The notes under the pieces were generated by a model that saw nothing but the letters and a program-made list of their open reading frames with translations, ran no database searches and was not told the DNA's origin. DNA of 28,525 nucleotides from a virus (lineage: Duplodnaviria > Heunggongvirae > Uroviricota > Caudoviricetes), in the IMG/VR virus record IMGVR_UViG_643348547_000003, positions 1-28,525 of that record. One strand, given 5' to 3'. Both the position numbers and the translations under genes were made by a program. Below are positions 1-12,288 of this stretch, piece by piece; the first letter of the stretch is position 1, and each line of letters begins with the position of its first letter.

Positions 1-891
1 TCAGGCTGCCAGATCATCGTTTCCGATGGAAGCATAATAAGCTTTTTCTGCTTCTGCCGGAGGAGTATGGCCCAGCCTTTCCAGCAATCGTCGATTGTTA
101 TACCAGTCCACCCACGTGAGTGTGGCCAGTTCCACTTCTGCACGGTTTTTCCAGCTCTTACGGTGTATTACCTCCGCTTTGTAAAGACCATTGATGCTCT
201 CCGCCATCGCGTTGTCATACGAGTCGCCTGTACTTCCTGTTGATGCCAGTAATCCGGCTTCCTTAAGCCGCTGTGTGTAGGCCAGCGATACATACTGAGA
301 ACCTTTATCACTGTGATGGACCGTGCCGGACGGTCGACGGGCCCATAACGCCTGCTCCAGTGCATCCAGCACGAATGTCGTTTCCATGGACGATGAGACC
401 CGCCACCCCACGATGTATCCGGCAAACACATCAATGATGAACGCCACATAGACGAAGCCCCGCCATGTGCTGACGTAAGTAAAATCAGCCACCCACAGCT
501 GGTCAGGTCGTTCTGCCACGAACTGACGGTTTACGCGGTCGCCTGCGGCAACGGCTTTCCGGCTGATGGTCGTACGGACCTTTTTACCCCGGAGAACACC
601 GGCAAGTCCCATAACCGCCATGAGACGTGCCACAGTGCATCTGGCCACTCTGATACCTTCCCGTAACAACTGACGCCAGACTTTACGCACACCGTATACC
701 TTGTGATTTTCATCGTATACGCGCTGTATCTCTTTCTTCAGCCAGTCATCGCGCTGCGCACGGGCACTGCGTTTATCCGGATGATGTCGCTGTTGCTGAC
801 AGTGGTAATACGTTGACGGGGCAATATGCAGTTCGCTGCATAGCGGTCCGACCCCGTACTGCTCACGCAGCTTATCCAGCAGTGGCATCAT
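1..891 (-). CDS. IS3-family transposase OrfB (DDE catalytic subunit)
   Basis: 296 aa with an integrase-core-like region (WVADFTYV...HSDKGSQY...[15 protein letters not shown]) typical of DDE transposases of the IS3 family. Overlaps orfA by 4 nt. Confidence 0.85.
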
Positions 892-1214
892 TTTTTCCAG
901 AGGCGGTCGAACTCCGCCTTCGCAAAATAAGCGGAAGCCTGGCGAAGGATATCGTTACTGCGGCGCAGTTCACGATTTTCACGTTCCAGCTCTTTCAGAC
1001 GCTGACGTTCAGCGGTGGTGAGCCCTCCATCACCGCCCCCGGTATCCCGCTCATGCTGGCGAACCCAGACACGCAGAGTCTCCGGCGTACAGCCAATCTT
1101 TGGAGCAATGGAACAAATTGTCGCCCATTGTGAGTCATATTCGCTCTGACTTTCCAGAACCATACGGACTGCCCGTTGACGGACTTCGGGGGAAAAACGA
1201 GTATTTTTAGTCAT
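888..1214 (-). CDS. IS3-family transposase OrfA (HTH DNA-binding subunit)
   Basis: 108 aa, [19 protein letters not shown]..., with a C-terminal leucine-zipper-like region ([26 protein letters not shown]) typical of IS3 OrfA. Ends in an A-run overlapping the orfB start, consistent with a programmed -1 frameshift. Confidence 0.85.
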
Positions 1215-1268
1215 CCTGTTTACCTCTTTCTCAGGAAGTTTAGTCTCCAGGATTCCCGGGGCGGTTCA

Positions 1269-2180
1269 GATGCACTAAATTACTGGTATGAAAATTACTG
1301 TAAGGTGCGTCGTAAAACTCATGCTGTAACGCTTGGCAGATTTCGAAAGCATATCTTTCCCTATATCGGTCATTTGCCCGTAAATGACACTCACCTATAT
1401 GAATGGCTGGACTGTTTTGACCGAATTAAACGTAATGCACCAGTTATGGCGGCGTATGTTTTTTCTGACACTAAATTAGCTCTTCGTTTTTGTCGGGTAC
1501 GCCAGTACGCGACGTGTGATGCTTTAAAGGATTTGCGCATGAGTGATGTGGGGCAGATTGCAGGTAAGCGGGATCGGGTTCTGGATGAAGCCGAACTCGG
1601 CCAGCTCTGGAAGGCAATTTTTGTCGAGCCTGATTTAAAACTAATGTCTGAATACACGCGAAAAATGTTTGTGCTTTGTACAGTATTTGGATGTCGAATG
1701 AGTGAAGCCCGATTATCAGAATGGAGCGAATGGGATCTCGAAAGTTGGGTTTGGACTGTACCAAAAGATCACTCAAAAACTGGTGTTGAAATCGTCAGAC
1801 CAGTACCTGAAATTCTACGACAGTGGGTAACGGATGTTCACGAAGAGACAAAACATACTGGTTATGTGCTGGGAAGTCTGCGAATTAGAGAAAGCGTAAG
1901 CAAGATTGGGGGGAAAATCGGTAAACGTTTGGGCCATGAAAAACAATGGTCACTACACGACCTTAGAAGAACGCTATCTACTCATCTAAGTGATCTCGGT
2001 GTTGAATTTTATGTAGTAGAACAACTGTTAGGCCATGCGCTACCTGGCGTGGCAGGTGTTTACAACCGGAGTAAGTTTATGGCTAAAAAACTGGATGCTC
2101 TGGAACTCTGGACTACATATCTCAATAGCATCGCAGGTGCTGATTCAAAAGTGACGATCCTCAAACAAAAGGTTGGTTAA
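1269..2180 (+). pseudogene. int: P4-type tyrosine integrase, 5' end interrupted by the IS insertion
   Basis: The reading frame continues directly from the IS end at 1269 (DALNYWYENY...). The C-terminal catalytic region has tyrosine-recombinase motifs (HDLRRT, LGHA, VYNRS). The N-terminal portion must lie beyond the IS, outside the window; the ORF-track start at 1176 lies inside IS sequence and is an artefact. Confidence 0.8.
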
Positions 2181-2181
2181 C

Positions 2182-2409
2182 ATGAAAAAAATGGCAATTG
2201 TTGATAAAAAGGGTCTGGAGTACATTCCTAACATTGACCGAATGATCCGTGAGAAAGAATGTCGGGAGCTAACCACTCTTGCGAACAGCACACGCTGGAA
2301 GCTGGAGAAGGAAGGAAAATTTCCTAAGCGGATCAAGATTGGTTCCACTGCTGTTGCATATCGTCTTTCAGAAGTGCAGGCATGGATTCGAGGTGAGTGG
2401 GTAGTTTAA
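2182..2409 (+). CDS. alpA: AlpA-family (Phage_AlpA, HTH) regulator or excisionase-like protein
   Basis: About 75 aa with an AlpA-like pattern (TTLANSTRWKLEKEGKFPKRIKIGSTAVAYRLSEVQAWI). Sits immediately downstream of int, as in P4-like and PICI elements. The track start at 2173 is TTG; the ATG at 2182 is preferred. Confidence 0.7.
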   Translation: MKKMAIVDKKGLEYIPNIDRMIREKECRELTTLANSTRWKLEKEGKFPKRIKIGSTAVAYRLSEVQAWIRGEWVV

Positions 2410-2434
2410 ATTATCTCAGAATAAAATATTATGA

Positions 2435-2470
2435 ATTACTGATTTGAGAATTTGTACTCAAATCAGTAAT
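2435..2470. terminator. Perfect 14-bp inverted repeat hairpin between convergent genes (putative bidirectional terminator)
   Basis: ATTACTGATTTGAG (2435..2448), 8-nt loop, CTCAAATCAGTAAT (2457..2470). Lies between the alpA stop (2409) and the stop of the minus-strand gene (2479). Confidence 0.45.
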
Positions 2471-2478
2471 AACATTCT

Positions 2479-3015
2479 TTATAAGAGATTAAATCCAAAT
2501 AAAGAGTAATCATATACCGGGGTGCATTGCATTCCACTGAATATGCTGATGTTTTTTTCTGTTTCTATCCTTTTTTCAATAAGTTGTTGTATATTTTTAC
2601 AGTACAATTTGTGTGTGATGTTATTATCGTAAGCCTGATATAGCAACGTCAATGTTGACGCTAGGAAACATACAGATAAAATTAAAATAATATATGCAGT
2701 TTTTTTATTTTTTGTCCATGATCTATTTGTTTGTGAAATATAAAGAATTCTGAGGTGGATAATGGTGAGAGACAATAGCAGGCCACTCAATAAAATAAGT
2801 ATTGGGTTTGCGTATTTTATTAATGGTTGAGAGCAAAAAACTATTATAGCTCCTGTGACTGCGTATGAGAAAAAGGAGTAATTAAACTTCTTACTCCTTC
2901 TCTCAAGTATTTTAATTTCATCTTGTGTGGGGGTTTTAGATGCCTCTAATATAAGTTTATTGAATGTTTCTGTTATCTTGTTTTTTGTGTTTGTGGCTAT
3001 TTTTTTTAGATTCAT
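2479..3015 (-). CDS. Hypothetical small membrane protein (about 3 predicted TM helices) in an AT-rich cargo segment
   Basis: 178-aa ORF in a strongly AT-rich stretch (about 2410..3330). Hydrophilic N-terminus followed by three hydrophobic segments (AVTGAIIVFCSQPLI, ILILLSGLLLSLTIIHL, AYIILILSVCFLASTLTLL). No family recognised. Confidence 0.6.
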   Translation of the reverse strand: MNLKKIATNTKNKITETFNKLILEASKTPTQDEIKILERRSKKFNYSFFSYAVTGAIIVFCSQPLIKYANPILILLSGLLLSLTIIHLRILYISQTNRSWTKNKKTAYIILILSVCFLASTLTLLYQAYDNNITHKLYCKNIQQLIEKRIETEKNISIFSGMQCTPVYDYSLFGFNLL

Positions 3016-3365
3016 AGCATTCTAACTCCCTTAACTTATTTATTACTTTCTCTTTATGATAAGAGAGGGGAATGACTTGGTAAAGTGATTTGTCATTAAT
3101 AATGATAATCCTTGCGATAAATATTTCTGCAAGTTATTTATCTGTTTGTTGCTATCTTGTTAAGCGTTGGGTGTGGTTTATATTTGGAGCGACTTTATTT
3201 AATCGTGATTTTATGGATTTATATTTATATCCTGTAAGATAAGCGCATGTTAGTTTAGGAGTAGTGTCAGATAAAATTATTCGGAGTAGAACTACCTTTT
3301 CTGTTTATTGCCAGTATTTACATAGCAATGCGCCGTAGTTACTCACATCACGGCGCTGATACTAA

Positions 3366-3668
3366 TTATTCAGATTCTTTGGCTTTACGCCGCTGGAGTT
3401 CTTCACGAGCGACGGCTACGAGTTGCCCGATTTCCTCCGCTGCCTTGATGCCGATTTGTTCGACCTTAGCTAAGGCATCCAGTGAAGACACGAGGGGATT
3501 TTCTCCGCTTCCTTCTGCCTGGCGGCGGGCGATCTCACCGCGCATGGCGGTTACTATGAATCCGGCGTTGCTTTCGCCGTCCAGTTTTACGGATTCCATG
3601 CCCTCCATAACATCGTGGGGAACCCTGATCGTTGTCATTTGCGATTTTGCATTTTTGTATACAGACAT
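3366..3668 (-). CDS. Putative ribbon-helix-helix (Arc/CopG-like) transcriptional regulator
   Basis: 100 aa. The N-terminal segment TTIRVPHDVMEGMESVKLDGESNAGFIVTAMRGEI fits a beta-strand plus two-helix RHH pattern. Transcribed divergently from the replication-side genes, with an operator-like repeat array in between. Confidence 0.55.
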   Translation of the reverse strand: MSVYKNAKSQMTTIRVPHDVMEGMESVKLDGESNAGFIVTAMRGEIARRQAEGSGENPLVSSLDALAKVEQIGIKAAEEIGQLVAVAREELQRRKAKESE

Positions 3669-3688
3669 AGTTAATCACCAATTTGTTA

Positions 3689-3790
3689 TGTGTATATCAC
3701 TATACACAAAAGTGAGATATAAAAACACTTGCAATGTATATCACCACAATATAATGTATATCTCACATTATGGTCGCTATGTATCTCACA
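3689..3790. promoter_or_regulatory. Divergent promoter/operator region with repeated TGTATATC(T)CAC motifs
   Basis: Palindrome TGTGTATA-TCAC-TATACACA at 3689..3708. Related motif copies at 3712..3721 (reverse orientation), 3734..3744, 3754..3767 and 3779..3790. Located between the divergent genes 3366..3668 (minus) and 3877..4242 (plus). Confidence 0.5.
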
Positions 3791-3876
3791 ATGATCGATT
3801 CATAAAAACGACGAAACCCGGCAGTGCGCGAACACTAACCGGGCTTCTAACCAAACCGTTAAACGAGGTAACTATT

Positions 3877-4242
3877 ATGGCTGGAACACAGCATACCCAA
3901 ACTCACCCTAAATTTATATACATCTTTCTGGCGCTACATCGCGATCGCATAGCAGATGGAGCAACTACGGTACATGTAGCCGCTGACACGCTGGTTGATG
4001 CCCGCAAGATGGTTAAGGAGATGGGCTATACTGCGGCTTTCTGGAAAGGGCGGGAAGAAAACACGCTGTTTATTCAGAAATGTGAAAACAATTTCCTCTG
4101 GCGTTTTATCGCCCTGAGTACGACACAACCGCGCGTGATTACCATCGAGGCCACCAGCGAACAGGAAGCCCGCCAGCAATCCCCAACTGGCTGCGTGATG
4201 ATATTCGCCGCCCGTATTCGTCAGGAGGTGTGCCATGAATGA
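3877..4242 (+). CDS. Hypothetical protein (first gene of the rightward operon)
   Basis: 121 aa, ATG at 3877 preceded by GAGG. This is the 3' portion of the long track ORF 3328..4242, whose upstream part is antisense to the RHH gene. No family assigned. Confidence 0.6.
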   Translation: MAGTQHTQTHPKFIYIFLALHRDRIADGATTVHVAADTLVDARKMVKEMGYTAAFWKGREENTLFIQKCENNFLWRFIALSTTQPRVITIEATSEQEARQQSPTGCVMIFAARIRQEVCHE

Positions 4243-4459
4243 TCTTTATTTTAAAGTGCTGACACATGCTGAAAACGCGCTCGTTTGTGGCAAAAATATG
4301 CGAGAAATCTTATCAACCTGGCTTGATGGGACAACAAATGCGGAACACGATGAACGGGATGCTAATTTAGCTGGAGCGTTAATTACGTTACTTGATCCTG
4401 TCATCAAAGAGCTGGATGAAGCTATAAAAATACACGACCAGAGCTATACCGAAGAATAA
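4235..4459 (+). CDS. Hypothetical protein
   Basis: 74 aa. Start overlaps the upstream stop; AGGAGG six nt upstream of the ATG. Confidence 0.5.
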   Translation: MNDLYFKVLTHAENALVCGKNMREILSTWLDGTTNAEHDERDANLAGALITLLDPVIKELDEAIKIHDQSYTEE

Positions 4460-4461
4460 AA

Positions 4462-4749
4462 ATGAAAAATAAATTTTCTGGCTTTATTGCCAGCGGTCAA
4501 GCTCATTCAAAAATCAGCCTTGGGGATATTTTCAAAGATAGCTATGGCTATCGGGTAAAGATTATTTCGGTTGATGATCGCCGTGTCTCTTATTTGCGTG
4601 ATGGTTATGATTTTGAATGTGTTATGCCGCGTCAGCAGTTCGAAAGAGATTTCATTCTGGTAAAAAATTGCAAGACAGATAATCAGAGGCGTGCCGCAGG
4701 CTATATCCGCAAAATTCGGGCAATGTTAGTTGCCGGAGGTAATAAATGA
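4462..4749 (+). CDS. Hypothetical small protein (possibly DUF4222-like; uncertain)
   Basis: 95 aa, tightly packed in the operon. The segment YRVKIISVDDRRVSYLRDGYDFECVMPRQQFERDFILV resembles what I recall of small conserved satellite/prophage proteins, but no search was run. Confidence 0.5.
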   Translation: MKNKFSGFIASGQAHSKISLGDIFKDSYGYRVKIISVDDRRVSYLRDGYDFECVMPRQQFERDFILVKNCKTDNQRRAAGYIRKIRAMLVAGGNK

Positions 4750-4928
4750 AACGTGCTCCGAACTTAAAATACCAACCGCGCGACAAAATGACAGAAGTCA
4801 TCATTTTTGCTGGCAGTGATGCCTAGAGCCATGCAAAAGAATGGAATGAATGGGCGGGTAAGCATATTGCAGCAGATGATACACCACCAGTAATTCTGGG
4901 TACGGAACAACTGGAAAACCTGGATGAT

Positions 4929-6566
4929 ATGCAAATTATCGATGAAGGCCGTCATTATGTGCGTGTTTATCGTGCCGGAAAGATTGCAGAGAAAAATCTG
5001 ACGAAGGTTGCGACATTACTTGCTATTGCAGGCGTAAAGGAAGCACGTTGTTACCGTAGCTTTGTTGATCGAGAGCCTGAAGACTGGACTCCGCGCCTTG
5101 TCGGCCTAAAAGCTGAAGCGGAGCATGGGGAAAGTCTGGTGATTGAACTGCCAGTGAAGAAGGCTGAGCGCAAAAATGACGAGCGTGCTTCATCTTTGGC
5201 GTTGAATCAGATGGGGGCCAGCCAGCGCGGTGAAGTTCTCCTTGCACATTACGGCGGCGAACTGGCAATCAATGCCGACTCTGACACCGTTCATCATTAC
5301 AACGGCGTTGTATGGGAGCCGGTTCAGGATAAAGAGTTACAGCGTGCTATGGCGCAGATTTTCATTGATGCGGAGATCAGCTATTCGCAGAACGCTATTA
5401 AATCGGCGGTAGATACCATGAAGTTAAGTTTGCCTGTAATGGGGAATACAGCCCGTAACCTGATTGGATTCAGTAACGGGGTATTTGATACCAGAACTGG
5501 TAATTTTCGGGAGCATAACAAAAACGACTGGTTGTTAATTGCCAGTGAATTACCTTTCAGCCCACCAGCAGAGGGGGAAACGCTGGCAACACATGCGCCG
5601 AATTTCTGGAAGTGGTTGCGCCGTTCGGTGGCTGAGAATGACCGCAAGGCAGATCGCGTACTGGCGGCATTATTCATGGTGCTGGCGAACCGGTACGACT
5701 GGCAGTTATTCATTGAGGTAACAGGGCCGGGGGGAAGTGGTAAAAGTGTGATGGCGGAGATTTGCACCATGCTGGCGGGTAAGGCTAATACAGTATCAGC
5801 AAGCATGAAGGCGCTGGAAGATGCAAGGGAACGTGCGTTAGTGGTTGGCTTTTCGCTGATTATCATGCCGGATATGACCCGCTACGCTGGTGATGGGGCA
5901 GGGATTAAGGCCATTACAGGCGGTGACAAGGTGGCAATTGACCCGAAACACAAAGCCCCCTATTCAACGCGTATTCCGGCAGTAGTGCTGGCGGTTAACA
6001 ATAACGCCATGTCATTCAGTGACCGCAGCGGGGGGATCTCACGTCGTCGGGTGATATTCAATTTTTCGGAAGTTGTACCGGAGAACGAACGCGATTCGAT
6101 GCTGGCGGAAAAAATAGAAGGTGAGCTGGCGGTAGTGATTCGTCATCTGCTTACAAGGTTTGCTGATCAGGACGAAGCCAGACGCCTGTTATATGAGCAG
6201 CAGAAATCTGAAGAAGCACTGGCGATAAAGCGAGAGGGGGATTCGCTGGTGGACTTCTGCGGTTATCTCATGGCATCGGTAATGTGTGATGGCCTGTTAG
6301 TGGGTAATGCTGAAATTGTGCCATTCAGCCCACGCAGGTATCTCTATCATGCCTATCTGGCTTATATGAGGGCACATGGGTTTGGTAAACCTGTAACACT
6401 GACGCGCTTCGGTAAAGATATGCCGGGGGCAATGGCGGAATATGGCAGGGAGTATATGAAACGGAAAACGAAGCACGGTTTGCGTTCAAACGTGACCCTG
6501 ACGGAGGAATCAGAAGACTGGATGCCATCATGTGTATCGGTCACTAATGACGATAGCAAAAATTAA
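4929..6566 (+). CDS. Replication protein, P4 alpha C-terminal / D5-like SF3 helicase-NTPase family
   Basis: 545 aa. Walker A motif VTGPGGSGKSV, Walker B-like LIIMPDMT, and a D5_N-like region (VVWEPVQDKELQRAMAQIFID). No obvious toprim primase domain. Immediately followed by an iteron array. Confidence 0.8.
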   Translation: MQIIDEGRHYVRVYRAGKIAEKNLTKVATLLAIAGVKEARCYRSFVDREPEDWTPRLVGLKAEAEHGESLVIELPVKKAERKNDERASSLALNQMGASQRGEVLLAHYGGELAINADSDTVHHYNGVVWEPVQDKELQRAMAQIFIDAEISYSQNAIKSAVDTMKLSLPVMGNTARNLIGFSNGVFDTRTGNFREHNKNDWLLIASELPFSPPAEGETLATHAPNFWKWLRRSVAENDRKADRVLAALFMVLANRYDWQLFIEVTGPGGSGKSVMAEICTMLAGKANTVSASMKALEDARERALVVGFSLIIMPDMTRYAGDGAGIKAITGGDKVAIDPKHKAPYSTRIPAVVLAVNNNAMSFSDRSGGISRRRVIFNFSEVVPENERDSMLAEKIEGELAVVIRHLLTRFADQDEARRLLYEQQKSEEALAIKREGDSLVDFCGYLMASVMCDGLLVGNAEIVPFSPRRYLYHAYLAYMRAHGFGKPVTLTRFGKDMPGAMAEYGREYMKRKTKHGLRSNVTLTEESEDWMPSCVSVTNDDSKN

Positions 6567-6580
6567 ACTTATGGAATAAC

Positions 6581-6801
6581 TGTTCACCACTGTTCACCCT
6601 GTCATAAATATCTTTTATATCAGTATATTATAGGGTGAACAGTTATTTATGAACTGTTCACCAAACTATTCACTGTTCACCTTTTTGATTGTTTATTGAG
6701 CTTCAAGGGTGAACAGTGGTGAACAGTTGGTGAATAGTTTTTGTGAAACTGTTCACCCATTAACATTATGAATTAAAAGAGAAAATATCAAAAGGTGAAC
6801 A
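6581..6801. repeat. Iteron array (putative satellite replication origin): about 9 copies of TGTTCACC / GGTGAACA
   Basis: TGTTCACC at 6581, 6591, 6655, 6674 and 6750. Reverse-orientation GGTGAACA at 6634, 6708, 6718 and 6794. This octamer is the iteron I recall from the P4 ori and crr, bound by the alpha protein. Confidence 0.7.
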
Positions 6802-6853
6802 GGTGAAGGGTTAAAACGCAAAAATTTTAATTTACTGCTGTGAGATAAAGCCT

Positions 6854-7099
6854 ATGACAGCGAAGCACACAAAAAAATCACAATCGCACGCCCTTGATTT
6901 GACGGAACACTGGTTAAGGGTGTCGATAAAAATCATCGACCGCAACGCCGGGGAAGGATACGCGAAAGCACATCCCGAACTGATTAGCGCATTCATGACA
7001 ACGGCGGCTGCAAACTTTGCCACTCTGACCGAACGGGAGATTGCTGAAGCGGAGGAAGTGACAACAATCAATATTAAGTCCGGAGAGCAGGCAGCATGA
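6854..7099 (+). CDS. Hypothetical protein
   Basis: 81 aa. Stop overlaps the start of the SSB-like gene (ATGA). Weak ribosome-binding site. Confidence 0.45.
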   Translation: MTAKHTKKSQSHALDLTEHWLRVSIKIIDRNAGEGYAKAHPELISAFMTTAAANFATLTEREIAEAEEVTTINIKSGEQAA

Positions 7100-7545
7100 C
7101 GGCGCAAATATCAGTTTACGGGCGGTTGGTGGACGACCCGCAGACAAAACAGACCAGCAAGGGCACCCCCATGACGCTGGCGCGTATGGCGGTATCACTG
7201 CCCTGCAGTCAGTCGGATGACGGTCAGGCGACGATGTGGTTATCTGTCCTGGCGTTTGGCAGACAAGCCGACGCGCTGGCAAAGCATCACAAAGGCGAAC
7301 TCCTGAGCGTGGCGGGTAATATGCAGGTGAGCCAGTGGACTGGACAGAACGGTGAAACGCGGCAGGGCTGGCAGGTTATCGCAGACAGCGTAATCAGTGC
7401 GCGAACGGTGCGACCGGGCGGCAAAAAAGGTCAACAGGGTCAGGCTACTGACGCACTGAACAGAGCAAAACAACAGGCAGATCAGCAAGGAAGCCATCCA
7501 CCAGTGGGAGATAATGAGCAATGGGGAGATGATATTCCGTTTTAA
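7096..7545 (+). CDS. Single-stranded DNA-binding protein (SSB-like)
   Basis: 149 aa. N-terminal OB-fold-like region, a Gly/Gln-rich linker and a C-terminal acidic tail ending DDIPF, the hallmark of the bacterial SSB C-terminus. Confidence 0.7.
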   Translation: MTAQISVYGRLVDDPQTKQTSKGTPMTLARMAVSLPCSQSDDGQATMWLSVLAFGRQADALAKHHKGELLSVAGNMQVSQWTGQNGETRQGWQVIADSVISARTVRPGGKKGQQGQATDALNRAKQQADQQGSHPPVGDNEQWGDDIPF

Positions 7546-7563
7546 ATATTGCCAATAAAAAAG

Positions 7564-7588
7564 GCCGGAAAAAAATAAATTTTCCGGC
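7564..7588 (+). terminator. Stem-loop downstream of the SSB-like gene (weak terminator candidate)
   Basis: GCCGGAAAA (7564..7572), 7-nt loop, TTTTCCGGC (7580..7588). No clear 3' U-tract. Confidence 0.35.
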
Positions 7589-7762
7589 ATGCTACATAAA
7601 TCCCGACCAAAGGGAGTGAAGATATTAACACTAATTATCCGCGCTGGAGTTGTTATCCCAAAACTTTATACAACATTGCACTCGGTTGCATGTATTCGCA
7701 TGACAAATATCGGTGATAGCATATATCCACAATTATTTTTAATGAATGCAAAGAGGATGCGT

Positions 7763-8803
7763 ATGGTTGATTTATATTCGCCTACCCAGCTTGTACAGGT
7801 GGTTAATGCTGTAGATGTACAAAAACAACTAAATGCGTTGTTTACCAGTTTGTTTTTTACTCGCTCGGTAATGTTTGAATCGCGCGATATTATTCTTGAT
7901 ACAATCGACGATCCAAATATCCCAATTGCAGCGTTTTGTTCTCCTATGGTAGGTAGTAAAGTTTCACGTGACGAAGGGTACGAATCAAAAACAATTCGTC
8001 CAGGCTATATGAAGCCGAAAAGCAGCATTGATCCAAATAAGTTAGCTGTGCGCCCTGCTGGTGTATCACCTGAGCAATACAATGCTTTTGGAGCGCGTAA
8101 TATTAAAGTTAAACAGGCGATTGTAAATCAGGCTAAAGCTATTCGTGCACGTATTGAATGGTTTGCCGTTCAGGCAATCACAACGGGGAAAAATATCATT
8201 GAGGGCGATGGTATTGAACGTTATGAGCTGGACTGGAATATAAAACCACAAAATATCATCACTCAGTCTGGCGGTACTGAGTGGTCAGGTAAGGATAAAG
8301 AAACTTTTGATCCAAATGATGATATTGAGAGCTACGCAGAATTTAGTGAGGGCGTCACTAATATCATCATTATGGGCGGTAATGTATGGAAGAAATACCG
8401 TTCATTCAGAGCGATAAAAGAGGCTCTGGATACCCGTCGTGGTTCTAATTCCGAACTGGAAACGGCCCTTAAAGACCTTGGTGATTCGGTGAGTTTTAAA
8501 GGGTATATGGGCGATGTTGCGATTGTTGTATACAGCGGGCGTTATACCGACGAGGACGGAACTGAAAAACATTTCCTTGATCCTGATTTGATGGTGCTTG
8601 GCAATACGGCTCTTCAGGGGATTGTCGCCTATGGCGGTATTCAGGATCCGGAGCTAATCCGAATGGGGCTGACTAAAGCCGAACTTGCACCGAAAAACTA
8701 TATTGTGCCTGGTGATCCGGCTATTGAATATGTGCAGACACATTCAGCACCACAGCCAATACCGGCCCGCATCAATCGTTTTGTTACCGTTCGCATTGGC
8801 TAA
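7763..8803 (+). CDS. Major capsid protein, phage lambda gpE family (divergent homolog)
   Basis: 346 aa from the ATG at 7763 (AAGAGGA five nt upstream). Alignable along its length to lambda gpE, with shared motifs NIITQSGGTEWS, DTRRGSNSELETA and GDVAIVVYSG. The 5' extension of the track ORF (7589..7762) is probably untranslated. Confidence 0.85.
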   Translation: MVDLYSPTQLVQVVNAVDVQKQLNALFTSLFFTRSVMFESRDIILDTIDDPNIPIAAFCSPMVGSKVSRDEGYESKTIRPGYMKPKSSIDPNKLAVRPAGVSPEQYNAFGARNIKVKQAIVNQAKAIRARIEWFAVQAITTGKNIIEGDGIERYELDWNIKPQNIITQSGGTEWSGKDKETFDPNDDIESYAEFSEGVTNIIIMGGNVWKKYRSFRAIKEALDTRRGSNSELETALKDLGDSVSFKGYMGDVAIVVYSGRYTDEDGTEKHFLDPDLMVLGNTALQGIVAYGGIQDPELIRMGLTKAELAPKNYIVPGDPAIEYVQTHSAPQPIPARINRFVTVRIG

Positions 8804-8812
8804 GGGGGAGCA

Positions 8813-9154
8813 ATGGCTACTCATTACACTGAACTCATGGCTGGCACTGAAGCACTGGTGACTACGCTGGGGATATTTTCAGCTAATAAAGGGGTAATTC
8901 CTGCATTTACGCCACTGATGCAGGAAGATGCAACAGGTGCACTGGTGGTATGGGATGGTTCGAGCGTAGGTAAAGCGGTTTATGTTTCCGCTGTACAAAT
9001 CGACACCGCGAAAAAAACACAGGCTCAGGTCTATAAGACAGGTGTCTTAAATGTTGATGCTCTGAACTGGCCTGAGTCTGTAAAAGAACTGTCAGTAAAG
9101 ATTGCAGCGTTTGTTGGCTCAGGTATTTCTGTTCAGCCGCTGGCTCGTGTGTAA
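8813..9154 (+). CDS. Head decoration protein, lambda gpD-like
   Basis: 113 aa. TPLMQEDATGALVVWDGSSVG and YKTGVLNVDALNWPE...AAFVGSGISV parallel lambda gpD. Lies downstream of the E-like gene, the reverse of the lambda D then E order. Confidence 0.75.
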   Translation: MATHYTELMAGTEALVTTLGIFSANKGVIPAFTPLMQEDATGALVVWDGSSVGKAVYVSAVQIDTAKKTQAQVYKTGVLNVDALNWPESVKELSVKIAAFVGSGISVQPLARV

Positions 9155-9165
9155 AGGGGGATACA

Positions 9166-9549
9166 ATGCAGAATGATTACAATGACCTTAAGCCACTTGC
9201 CGAAATGATGTACCCGAATCCAGCTGTAGAGGAATTAAAAGCTATCGCTGACAAAATGTGTTTAAGCGAGCGCCTTGTTGATATGAATCAGGTGATGGAA
9301 ATTACAACCCTGAGTCGGCGTACACTGCTAAACCTTGAGGCTAGTGGAGAGTTCCCGGAGCGTGTGCAGGTTACGGAAGGGCGTAAGGCCTGGTATTTAA
9401 GTGAAGTGATCGACTGGATAAATAATATTCCTCGCGCTTCTGAATATTGCCGCGTACCTGTCCCAAAAAAGCCAGATGCGGCGCTATGCCTCAAGATTGA
9501 GCGTGTACGCCGCAATGCACGGGATGGTCGCTATAAGCTGATTGGTTGA
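9166..9549 (+). CDS. AlpA-family HTH regulator with an N-terminal extension
   Basis: 127 aa. Core MEITTLSRRTLLNLEASGEFPERVQVTEGRKAWYLSEVIDWI matches the AlpA/HTH_17 pattern. Second AlpA-like gene in the island. Confidence 0.65.
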   Translation: MQNDYNDLKPLAEMMYPNPAVEELKAIADKMCLSERLVDMNQVMEITTLSRRTLLNLEASGEFPERVQVTEGRKAWYLSEVIDWINNIPRASEYCRVPVPKKPDAALCLKIERVRRNARDGRYKLIG

Positions 9550-9557
9550 TGAAATTA

Positions 9558-9581
9558 GGGCCCGCTCTGGCTGGCGGGTCC
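9558..9581 (+). terminator. GC-rich stem-loop after the second AlpA-like gene
   Basis: GGGCCCGC, 8-nt loop, GCGGGTCC, followed by TTTCC. Imperfect stem and short U-tract. Confidence 0.3.
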
Positions 9582-9713
9582 TTTCCGGCGATCTGACAGG
9601 CTACGGGGCGTCAGGCGCGCAGTTTTTTGCTATTTGTGAAAATTTTCCTGTTTAAGGCGTTTCCGTTCTTCTTCGCCGTAACTTAATGTTTTTATTAAAA
9701 ACACCCCCTAAAA

Positions 9714-9770
9714 AGAAAGGAAACGACAGGTGCTAAAAACAGGCTTTTTGGCCTCTGTCGTTTCCTTTCT
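9714..9770. other. Long perfect 16-bp inverted repeat (structured RNA or bidirectional terminator) in a roughly 600-bp non-coding spacer
   Basis: AGAAAGGAAACGACAG (9714..9729), 25-nt loop with an inner mini-hairpin, CTGTCGTTTCCTTTCT (9755..9770). Lies between convergent genes. Confidence 0.4.
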
Positions 9771-10147
9771 CTGGTTTTGTTGCCATCCGTCGCGGTCTAT
9801 CACCAGAAAAAATCTTATCCCTGAGTTGAATCAGGCCCTATTCAGAAGCGGTCAATAACGCGCCGCTAGCTTCACTTCATAGTTATGGCCTACTTCTGCG
9901 CCATTGCAATTGCTTTATGCGCCTTGATGGTGGAATATAGAGCAAGCAGTTTGCGAATAACAAAGTTTCATATGTTTTTTGCTGTGTGGCTAGACAACTT
10001 TACAGCAGAGTTTTGTGTCAGTTCTTTATGTGTGCAAGCAAGCTTGAGGGGGAATTACTTCTGGCTGCATCTTTGCTTAAGAACAGCAATAATTTAATCA
10101 TAAGGAAATGTATATAAGCCTGATTAAATTTCAGGCTTATTGAAATG

Positions 10148-11290
10148 TTAACTCCTTATTAGAGAGTAAATTCCATCCTCTTTAAGGAAGTCTATTACTT
10201 CAAAGAATGAGATAAAGAATTCCCAAGAACCAAAAGCATATGCATGAATTTCGTAAGGTGCAAAATGGAATCTAAATCCATCACTATTTATTGTGAACGA
10301 GTCTAAGTTACTATCCATGATACCCGTTGCAAACGTACTAATGTCGTCCTCACTTGGTTTTTCACCAGTTTTCTCCCAAAATTCACGAGCTGATTCAGAG
10401 ATTATTTTTTGTTTTATCTTATTAATCGCTTCTTGCTCTTTCCCTTCGGTAAATACATCCCATAAACTAAATTTGTATGCGTAGTCATCCTTGGTTATTA
10501 CGAAATTACTAGTTTCAAAATGACTGTTAGGGTGTGCTGCTCCCGCACCATACCAATGTACGGAATGAAGGATGCTCATAACATTTTCGTTACAGTATGA
10601 GATGTTATAACTTTCATTATAGGAACTAGTGTAAGTGTGTTTATATTCTTCATCCCAATATGGTGTTCCTGGCCATAGTGATGTGCGTTCAGAAAAAATA
10701 TGTAAAGCCGCTTTTCCTGAAAAGTAATCACTAATGAGTTTTGCTGATTTCGGTAATGTATGGCTTTCAATTCTTGGATATGCTATTTCAATTTCATGCC
10801 CTGGGATCTTGTTATATTCTTCCTTGAAAACCTCGCTGCTAAAGTTAAATGGCCCATAAGTGATACCTTGAGATATTTCAAGTTTTTGTTGCGATGCTGC
10901 TAATCTTAAAGATCTAGATAAAATGTCCCAACCATCATTTCTCTTAAAATCAATGAATTGGAGCTTGCTTGATATGTAGGCGGGTACTTCGCAATCATCA
11001 ATAAGTAATGGTATCACGAACACATCATCTGGTTTGTAATACTTTAGTTTATCAATGGCGTCATTTATTTCGCGGCGAATATAACCATTTTTCTGAGTGC
11101 TCACTTTGCTAAGGATAAGGATTATCAAGTTTGAATTAGCGAAGTTTTTTTGGATTTCATAATCCCAGTTTACGCCAGCGGGTATATCTTTTACATCCAT
11201 CCAAGGGGAATATCCTCCACTTTTTAGCCTTTCATAGATTTCTTCAGTTATCGTTTCATCTTCTTTTGCATGAGCAAGAAAAATTTTCAT
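10148..11290 (-). CDS. TIR-domain protein with a C-terminal DUF3298/RsiV-like domain (candidate antiphage effector)
   Basis: 380 aa in an AT-rich segment. The N-terminal 140 aa or so carry TIR-like hallmarks (KIFLAHAKEDE...W.D...I..G......I.ILSKVS...NGYIRREI). The C-terminal region contains HWYGAGAAHPNSHFETSNF...LWDVF, resembling the Y-x-GGAHG signature of DUF3298. SD-like AAGGA upstream of the start. No partner gene adjacent. Confidence 0.75.
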   Translation of the reverse strand: MKIFLAHAKEDETITEEIYERLKSGGYSPWMDVKDIPAGVNWDYEIQKNFANSNLIILILSKVSTQKNGYIRREINDAIDKLKYYKPDDVFVIPLLIDDCEVPAYISSKLQFIDFKRNDGWDILSRSLRLAASQQKLEISQGITYGPFNFSSEVFKEEYNKIPGHEIEIAYPRIESHTLPKSAKLISDYFSGKAALHIFSERTSLWPGTPYWDEEYKHTYTSSYNESYNISYCNENVMSILHSVHWYGAGAAHPNSHFETSNFVITKDDYAYKFSLWDVFTEGKEQEAINKIKQKIISESAREFWEKTGEKPSEDDISTFATGIMDSNLDSFTINSDGFRFHFAPYEIHAYAFGSWEFFISFFEVIDFLKEDGIYSLIRS

Positions 11291-11499
11291 TGAATATTCC
11301 TTTATAATTTAACTAATTAAGTGAAGGAGGCTTTACTTGGCTGTGTTAGAAAAAATTCGGTTTGTTTTTTGTACGATGCCAAGAAGGCTTTTCCCTAACC
11401 ATGTATTGCAGCATGTATTGCTACGTAATTCTGCACCCTCTCATTTATAAAATAAATCTCTGTTAAATCAAGTATCTTTTTTCTATTTGACTCATGTAA

Positions 11500-12288
11500 C
11501 CCAAGCATGAGGTGAATCCGCAGATGACCCTGCGTCGCCTGCCGGATGAAGATCCGCAGAATCTGGCGGACCCGGCTTACCGCCGCCGTCGCATCATCAT
11601 GCAGAACATGCGTGACGAAGAGCTGGCCATTGCTCAGGTCGAAGAGATGCAGGCCGTTTCTGCCGTGCTTAAGGGCAAATACACCATGACCGGTGAAGCC
11701 TTCGATCCGGTTGAGGTGGATATGGGCCGCAGTGCGGCGAATAACATCACGCAGTCCGGCGGCACGGAGTGGAGCAAGCGTGACAAGTCCACGTATGACC
11801 CGACCGACGATATCGAAGCCTACGCGCTGAACGCCAGCGGTGTGGTGAATATCATCGTGTTTGATCCGAAAGGCTGGGCGCTGTTCCGTTCCTTCAAAGC
11901 CGTCAAGGAGAAGCTGGATACCCGTCGTGGCTCTAATTCCGAGCTGGAGACAGCGGTGAAAGACCTGGGTAAAGCGGTGTCCTATAAGGGGATGTATGGC
12001 GATGTTGCCATCGTCGTGTATTCCGGACAGTACGTGGAAAACGGCGTCAAAAAGAACTTCCTGCCGGACAACACGATGGTGCTGGGGAACACTCAGGCAC
12101 GCGGTCTGCGTACCTATGGCTGTATTCAGGATGCGGACGCACAGCGCGAAGGCATTAACGCCTCTGCCCGTTACCCGAAAAACTGGGTGACCACCGGCGA
12201 TCCGGCGCGTGAGTTCACCATGATTCAGTCAGCACCGCTGATGCTGCTGGCTGACCCTGATGAGTTCGTGTCCGTACAACTGGCGTAA
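11500..12288 (+). pseudogene. E: Lambda major capsid protein E, 5'-truncated fragment (about C-terminal 260 aa)
   Basis: Translation PKHEVNPQMTLRRLPDEDPQNLADPAYRRRRIIMQNMRDEE... to ...DPDEFVSVQLA matches my recollection of lambda gpE from about residue 80 to the end. An in-frame TAA sits immediately upstream (11497..11499) and the upstream sequence is unrelated. Confidence 0.85.

Follow-up and report, generated by a model that had tools for sequence, protein, structure and literature searches.

The stretch of DNA analysed here (the window: all 28,525 nucleotides of IMG/VR virus record IMGVR_UViG_643348547_000003) carries a dense cluster of a single octamer immediately downstream of a gene for a P4 alpha-like NTPase. 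This arrangement raises the question of whether the cluster is a replication origin, to which element this origin belongs, and how replication is primed if the initiator lacks a primase. With a probability of roughly 0.85, positions 6581-6809 are the vegetative replication origin of a phage-inducible chromosomal island (PICI) of the helper-embedded kind (HE-PICI) that resides in a lambdoid major capsid gene, with its alpha-homologous initiator encoded upstream. The features on which this reading is based are collected in Table 1.

Table 1. Features of the island and its surroundings, in window coordinates
Feature	Position	Strand	Remarks
IS3-family insertion sequence	1-1268		rve and HTH_Tnp_1 domains
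ALIL frameshift pseudoknot of the IS3 element	817-933	-	Rfam
int remnant, truncated	1269-2180		IS inserted 324 nt into the gene
alpA	2173-2409
Membrane protein gene		-	follows alpA in the gene order
Icd-like region, then phrog_2196, then DUF4222 gene			between the membrane protein gene and rep
DUF4222 gene	4462-4749	+	stop overlaps the rep start (ATGA)
Replication initiator gene (rep; pri-rep, P4 alpha-like)	4746-6566	+	606 codons; pseudogene here, in-frame TAG
N-terminal domain, aa 1-148	4746-5189	+	in place of the P4 alpha Zn-ribbon/Toprim primase; motif TEVIIFAGSDAW
Amber codon TAG for invariant Trp27 (TGG)	4824-4826	+	window compared with locus L003
SF3 helicase core, DUF5906, P-loop GPGGSGKS	5721-6047	+	Pfam; alignment to P4 alpha
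C-terminal winged-helix origin-binding domain, aa 498-594	6237-6527	+	PDB 1ka8 match
Iteron module L	6581-6681	.	TGTTCACC at 6581, 6591, 6655, 6674 (+); GGTGAACA at 6634 (-); degenerate TATTCACT at 6665
AT-rich spacer in module L	6599-6633	.	20% GC; candidate unwinding element; contains the region's lowest-GC 25-mer (12%)
Central AT-rich spacer between the inverted modules	6682-6707	.	27% GC; near the symmetry centre at ~6695; inverted repeat I1
Iteron module R	6708-6809	.	GGTGAACA at 6708, 6718, 6794 (-); degenerate GGTGAATA at 6729; TGTTCACC at 6750 (+); degenerate GGTGAAGG at 6802
AT-rich spacer in module R	6758-6793	.	17% GC; candidate unwinding element
Small conserved ORF, phrog_1231	6854-7099	+	immediately 3' of the origin
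Island SSB	7096-7545	+	C-terminal DDIPF tip (WGDDIPF); within the replication zone
Lambda E-like capsid gene, the island's own	7589-8803		ORF
Lambda D-like decoration gene, the island's own	8813-9154
AlpA-like HTH gene			follows the decoration gene
TIR-domain gene, also DUF3298	10148-11290	-	3' end of the island
C-terminal capsid fragment, E-like, 258 codons	11512-12288		profile positions 94-328

The iteron array and the P4 origin

There are 13 exact copies of TGTTCACC on the two strands of the window, whereas dinucleotide-preserving shuffles of the window lead one to expect 1.04 +/- 1.08 (largest shuffle, 4). Nine of these copies, read as TGTTCACC on the plus strand and as GGTGAACA on the minus strand, fall within positions 6581-6801, and the densest 221-nt stretch in 200 shuffled windows holds at most two. 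The array begins 15 nt past the stop codon of the replication gene. Thus, the original prediction of about nine octamers in both orientations within about 220 bp, directly after the alpha-like NTPase gene, is correct in number, extent and placement. Three degenerate octamers complete the pattern, in which adjacent octamers on the same strand are spaced about 10-11 bp apart.

The copies are arranged in two modules of about 100 bp, L and R, that are mutually inverted. Module R has the orientation - - - + - - with start-to-start spacings of 10, 11, 21 and 44 for its first five copies. Module L is the same unit reversed, with the orientation + + - + (+) + and spacings of 10, 43, 21, 10 and 9. Each module consists of an iteron pair, an AT-rich stretch of about 35 bp, one inverted iteron and an iteron triplet, and the triplets of both modules face a 26-bp AT-rich centre. 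A global alignment of the two modules yields 71% identity (z=20.4 against shuffles). The DNA between iterons is 17-31% GC, and the array region overall is 30-35% GC compared to about 50% in its flanks.

There are no DnaA boxes and no GATC sites in the origin region, and the only matches to IHF sites are weak, with one mismatch each. A scan of positions 6400-7000 for sigma-70 promoter and terminator consensus sequences found neither, and a search across the island for a second iteron cluster, allowing copies with up to one mismatch, found none.

In the annotated P4 record (X51522), the TGTTCACC octamer is labelled 'ori type 1 repeat' and is present in both ori and crr, as had been proposed for the window octamer. 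The P4 ori core (9310-9413) includes six such repeats in the orientation - - - + - -, with spacings of 10, 11, 22, 43 and 10. The iteron spacings of module R match these to within 1 bp, such that the two layouts are collinear. When the island is compared directly with P4, the octamers agree, and the similarity extends beyond them. In end-to-end global alignments with P4 9306-9416, module R is 70% identical (z=21.7) and the reverse complement of module L is 72% identical (z=23.7). By comparison, either module in its best orientation is only 63-65% identical to a P4 crr repeat (z 10-12). A blastn search with positions 6400-7000 against 50,697 phage records matches P4 at ori (9304-9378) and gives one further match, to the cf-PICI-like 'phage' vB_KppS-Ant. 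A search for the P4 type 2 repeat motif revealed no enrichment, and the motif is absent near the origin. Judged by these alignments, the origin is an inverted pair of P4-ori-like units.

One possibility is that the array serves mainly as a control site to which Rep binds, rather than as the start point of replication. It might be a crr-like element, a set of incompatibility or handcuffing iterons, or an operator for the genes from ssb to capsid. Each P4 crr repeat does begin in a way that resembles the first half of module L, with a direct pair of iterons, 43 bp and one inverted iteron, and crr directly follows alpha in P4 as the array follows rep. Moreover, because no terminator or promoter consensus was found, transcription of rep must cross the array to reach the downstream genes. 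However, both modules resemble the P4 ori core more closely than they resemble crr, and there is no other candidate origin for Rep because the array is the only iteron cluster of the island. The experimental model of Gram-negative PICIs, EcCICFT073 (Fillol-Salom et al. 2018, PMC6092414), also speaks against a mere control site. At the restrictive temperature, a temperature-sensitive plasmid was kept by virtue of its rep-ori region, for which neither rep nor ori was dispensable, and deletion of the ori region, which is homologous to the array, lowered plasmid maintenance (PMC6092414). A control site is therefore improbable, and we favour the reading of the array as the point at which replication starts.

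An alpha-like initiator with a distinct N-terminal domain

The start of rep is preceded by GGAGG, located 6 nt upstream. The coordinates given for this gene in the original prediction (4929-6566) are wrong by 183 nt and miss the true start at 4746; the shorter ORF was used because the in-frame TAG leaves only the downstream part of the gene open. The Pfam domains of Rep are D5_N, DUF5906 and Pox_D5. Rep residues 149-596 align with P4 alpha residues 323-771 at 51% identity over 449 aa, and this alignment spans D5_N, the SF3 helicase and the C-terminal domain. The latter domain matches PDB 1ka8, the origin-binding domain of P4 alpha, with E=1.9e-24. Thus, the initiator is alpha-like, as had been claimed.

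Rep residues 1-148 have no counterpart in P4 alpha. A Pfam search with residues 1-178 returns no family at E<=1, whereas the same search with the N-terminus of P4 alpha, included as a positive control, recovers Zn_Ribbon_Prim (7e-19) and Toprim_3 (1e-13). Likewise, an hhalign comparison of the N-terminal domain family with P4 alpha 1-323 gives a probability of only 0.5%. The observation that Rep lacks a recognisable toprim domain therefore stands, and the Zn-ribbon is equally undetectable. The profile search that had been proposed for this region reveals no primase signature, but it would be wrong to regard the region as empty, for it holds a conserved, family-specific domain.

This domain family is characterized by an invariant FAGSDAW motif, and W27 is invariant across 29 homologues. 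The domain is rare: a set of 1.84 billion representatives contains 140 clusters with it. Its location is always N-terminal, and its fusion partner is either an alpha-like D5_N/DUF5906 helicase or a DUF927 protein. In our motif alignment, the positions of the Toprim catalytic Glu and DxD residues are occupied by Ala and Val/Tyr in the FAGSDAW domain, and the equivalent positions are never acidic in distant members of the family. From these alignments, we conclude that the FAGSDAW domain offers no evidence of primase activity.

Perhaps the FAGSDAW domain is a functional substitute for the primase on initiators of the alpha and DUF927 families in Gram-negative satellites, acting either as an adaptor or as a very divergent primase. 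We consider this proposal doubtful. In its adaptor version, the domain would recruit the host DnaG, or another primosome or SSB partner, to the SF3 helicase. Papillomavirus E1 and SV40 T antigen recruit the cellular primase, and if the adaptor version were true there would be a bacterial counterpart of these proteins.

There are also fusion ORFs in other E. coli genomes (P0012, P0018, P0017 and P0041) in which the N-terminal domain of Rep is joined to SSB, in the mid-part of that protein, or to the capsid protein. The junction with SSB is always located at one SSB residue (SVLAFGRQ). Both types of ORF derive from deletions that removed the helicase together with the origin.

The island, its relatives and the state of the window copy

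The island extends from about 1269 to 11500 and interrupts a lambdoid prophage in its major capsid gene. Lambdoid tail genes follow the C-terminal capsid fragment and fill the rest of the window, and the IS places the left capsid junction beyond the window edge. The same island, in complete genomes, is flanked by the N- and C-terminal major-capsid fragments of a lambdoid prophage, and the annotation of this prophage uses DLP12-type names for the early and lysis genes (nohD, essD, rrrD, rzpD). The N-terminal fragment is present at the same island in AR_0013, MRSN346647 and NRG857c. This is the HE-PICI configuration at the site named E:Phage_cap_E (Tommasini, Mageeney and Williams 2023, PMC10111431). 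The position and layout of the origin, the homology of Pri-Rep and the gene order are likewise those of a Gram-negative PICI replicon. There are no sid, delta, psu or epsilon genes among the scanned island ORFs (int, AlpA, membrane protein, Icd-like, phrog_2196, DUF4222, rep, phrog_1231, SSB, capsid E-like, decoration D-like, AlpA-like HTH and TIR). Thus, the element is not a P4-like island but an HE-PICI of the EcCICFT073/11capE kind, inserted in a lambdoid capsid gene.

The DUF4222 gene is a conserved partner of rep in both EcCICFT073 and 11capE. Its product was considered as the equivalent of ORF106, whose gene is immediately upstream of P4 alpha, and this candidate was dropped when BLASTP produced no alignment. 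An 11-nt direct repeat in AR_0013 was considered as the att core and rejected because it lies away from the annotated capsid junctions. With Rfam, the IS3 frameshift pseudoknot is the sole hit, and no RNA of the P4 CI/seqA kind reaches the gathering threshold.

Two other parts of the island deserve brief mention. In PADLOC, the matches of the TIR protein to several defence families are confined to their TIR portions. The 3' slot of the island looks like a variable cargo or defence site because 11capE carries HEPN and DUF262 genes at this location. The ORF at 3328-4242 has 304 codons, the last ~50 residues of which match phage repressor families. It is unlikely that this ORF is genuine over its full length, because RefSeq annotates only a short Icd-like protein and an opposite-strand YlcI/YnfO gene in this interval.

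A back-translated search, limited to one genome per species, yields 80 loci with relatives of the helicase and binding domain at 65-88% identity. They are found in Klebsiella, Citrobacter, Pectobacterium, Serratia, Yersinia, Erwinia, Xenorhabdus, Photorhabdus and other genera. At most of the 80 loci, the commonest 8-mer in the 330 nt past the rep stop codon is a repeated iteron. There are three iteron classes across these Enterobacterales loci, represented by GGTGAACA, GGTAGACA and GGTGGAGA. The class goes along with a short stretch within the binding domain, which reads KTKxG without an insertion, TKGPDKGR, or STKG-N, and which we take, from the sequence, to be the wing of the winged helix. 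Even P4 alpha, which is only 51% identical, has the class-A version of the wing together with class-A iterons. The correspondence between wing and iteron is nevertheless not a simple code, because EcCICFT073 carries class-B iterons (TGTCTACC) and lacks the wing insertion of the other class-B proteins. In addition, the covariation is partly confounded by relatedness, since the iteron classes may also be lineages. Among 12 class-A origins from different genera, the majority base accounts for a fraction of 0.915 at the 12 iteron positions and 0.722 in the spacers (Mann-Whitney p=5e-13, with columns and lineages that are not independent of each other).

The type of N-terminal domain varies independently of the iteron class among the 80 loci. 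There are three such types: a Zn-ribbon plus Toprim in P4-like proteins of about 810 aa, the PICI-type FAGSDAW domain, and a domain with the motif SDALFSC.Y.WVNGH. Proteins of this last type are about 575-600 aa in length and are found in Pectobacterium, Serratia, Yersinia, Rahnella, Pantoea and Erwinia (L011, L012, L014, L016, L019, L020, L023-L028 and L083), where they are combined with this same module of helicase, binding domain and origin. In Xenorhabdus and Photorhabdus (L029-L084), many species have several P4-like alpha genes per genome, with five loci in X. ehlersii. Each of these alpha proteins has a Zn-ribbon/Toprim N-terminus, and each gene is followed by TGTTCACC or TATTCACC iterons.

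There is one representative that is deposited as an E. coli plasmid, pZ1323HEC0475-3 (NZ_CP148328.1), a 10,790-bp circular record that is actually a PICI. It has int, alpA, Icd-like, DUF4222 and rep, together with a fused protease-capsid gene and one for tail assembly. The Rep of this record is identical to that of the window over residues 200-606 and all nine iterons are present, whereas its N-terminal domain is a different allele with 56% identity in the first 100 aa. The circular record is compatible with an episomal form of the island.

The window copy itself is damaged. Codon 27 of rep is TAG in the window, compared to TGG in two other loci (L003 and L088). In AR_0013, which has the same island without the IS, rep is annotated as a pseudogene with an 'internal stop'. 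Only two of the 70 complete E. coli genomes carrying the allele match the TAG version exactly, and AR_0013 is one of the two. The other 68 differ from it over a 71-nt probe, in the 95-99% band, with a single mismatch (98.6%) in the ten listed. The origin is intact in the window copy. Nevertheless, with an amber at codon 27 of rep and an int gene split by the IS, this copy looks disabled, and it is probably inactive, a decaying island rather than an active satellite.

Because of the amber codon, the origin of the window copy would fire only with Rep supplied in trans or with suppression of the stop. A compatible Rep might be, for example, P4 alpha or another class-A PICI Rep. Otherwise, the island would be copied passively with the prophage. 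The island also cannot excise by itself because its int gene is split. Thus, the autonomous replication after induction that was originally thought probable is doubtful for this copy. The family as a whole calls for similar caution. The excised 11capE island, after induction, had an attP:attB ratio of about 1 in two of three repeats and of 1.6-1.9 in the third (PMC10111431). Strong autonomous replication is therefore not established for the HE-PICI family.

These ratios near 1, and the frequent decay exemplified by the amber codon, the split int gene and the N-terminal domain fusions to SSB and capsid seen elsewhere, would be expected if the origin were a dead relic and even intact HE-PICIs replicated passively within the helper prophage, but this reading is even a little less probable than a control site, given that iterons are much better conserved than spacers across genera, that most genomes differ from the TAG allele, that the circular 10.8-kb record carries the same module, that the third 11capE repeat gave the higher ratio and that the EcCICFT073 module is functional (PMC6092414).

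Proposed mechanism and comparison with known systems

The best-supported reading of the array as a start point is that of a Rep-dependent, DnaA-independent origin, for which the individual steps are drawn from the EcCICFT073 experiment and from the homology of Rep to P4 alpha. Rep would bind the TGTTCACC octamers via its C-terminal winged-helix domain, and the SF3 helicase would assemble on the symmetric site. Perhaps the inverted symmetry lets two SF3 hexamers assemble head to head. An AT-rich spacer would then be melted and unwound outward, with forks leaving in both directions, and the island SSB would coat the unwound DNA.

Primers would have to come from elsewhere because Rep is without a Zn-ribbon/Toprim primase. 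The likeliest sources might be the host DnaG or read-through transcripts. DnaG could be recruited by the N-terminal domain of Rep or, alternatively, through the island SSB with its DDIPF tail. The acidic C-terminal tip of E. coli SSB is a partner-binding tail. Read-through transcripts are considered because no terminator separates rep from the origin. The attP:attB ratios of 11capE, about 1 in two repeats and 1.6-1.9 in the third, indicate that its autonomous replication is weak or conditional. A further and rather unlikely reading is that, because P4 and the PICI share their iteron and binding-domain specificity, each initiator, P4 alpha or PICI Rep, might activate or inhibit the origin of the other.

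HE-PICIs are already published, as are the iteron origins that follow pri-rep in PICIs of Gram-negative hosts. The present analysis adds that the HE-PICI origin is directly homologous to P4 ori, and its initiator to alpha, and that the origin is built as an inverted duplicate. It also adds the three classes of iterons, linked to the binding domain, and the replacement of the primase as a module. Two groups that have been treated as unrelated, P4-like elements and Gram-negative PICIs, are thereby joined in one replicon family that has a common iteron code and origin layout and exchangeable N-terminal modules. Some relatives that share the helicase and origin have the alpha-type primase module, and others lack it and carry one of two other N-terminal types. 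This makes the supply of primers to a bacterial SF3 helicase accessible to experiment. A concrete and testable origin map also becomes available for the published HE-PICI 11capE. For genome annotation, the window copy should be read as a decaying island.

Among known systems, the staphylococcal PICIs (SaPIs) are alike in layout. Their iteron origin is located directly after the gene for a self-loading helicase and origin specificity resides in the C-terminal part of this helicase, whereas the helicase family and the host differ from those of the window island. The primase of SaPIs is separable and dispensable.

P4 and the island share the octamer TGTTCACC, the 'type 1 repeat' of P4, and six iterons around an AT-rich stretch of about 35 bp, in the order and spacing found in the island modules. 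A DnaA box is absent from both, and Rep and alpha have homologous SF3 helicase and winged-helix origin-binding domains. In P4, crr directly follows alpha, as the island array follows rep. However, the island has two copies of the ori-like unit, inverted relative to each other and located immediately behind the initiator gene, and it is without a distant crr and without type 2 repeats. P4 requires crr as a second, distant cis site (the annotated P4 record served as the P4 reference). The P4 mechanism is therefore not transferable unchanged, because the island has no second iteron cluster. The island also differs in that its Rep is without the Zn-ribbon/Toprim primase carried by alpha, in that the DUF4222 protein encoded upstream of rep is unlike the ORF106 product encoded upstream of alpha, and in being without sid, delta, psu and epsilon.

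EcCICFT073 has the common gene order int, alpA, Icd-like, DUF4222, pri-rep, ori, small ORF, ssb, capsid and decoration. Across the whole protein, N-terminal domain included, its Pri-Rep shares 44% identity with Rep, and this protein, which has the same architecture as Rep, works in DH5alpha (PMC6092414). Its ori is located directly 3' of pri-rep and has two iteron sets around AT-rich DNA, as is the case here. A figure legend in the same study describes E. coli PICI origins as two iteron sets that flank an AT-rich region (PMC6092414). The two islands differ in their iterons (TGTCTACC compared to TGTTCACC), and the origin-binding domain is divergent. They also differ in location, because EcCICFT073 is chromosomal, next to phoQ, whereas the window island is inside a prophage gene.

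The near-identical Eco567.11capE is the founding HE-PICI, from strain NRG857c. Its rep-ori region is 99.5% identical to that of the window, with differences at 11 of 2355 positions, one of which is in the origin. The window copy is distinguished by the W27 amber codon in rep, by the IS3-family insertion in int, and by a TIR-domain cargo gene in contrast to the HEPN and DUF262 genes of 11capE. Both islands are integrated into the same target, a lambda E-like capsid gene, and both carry capsid and decoration genes of their own.
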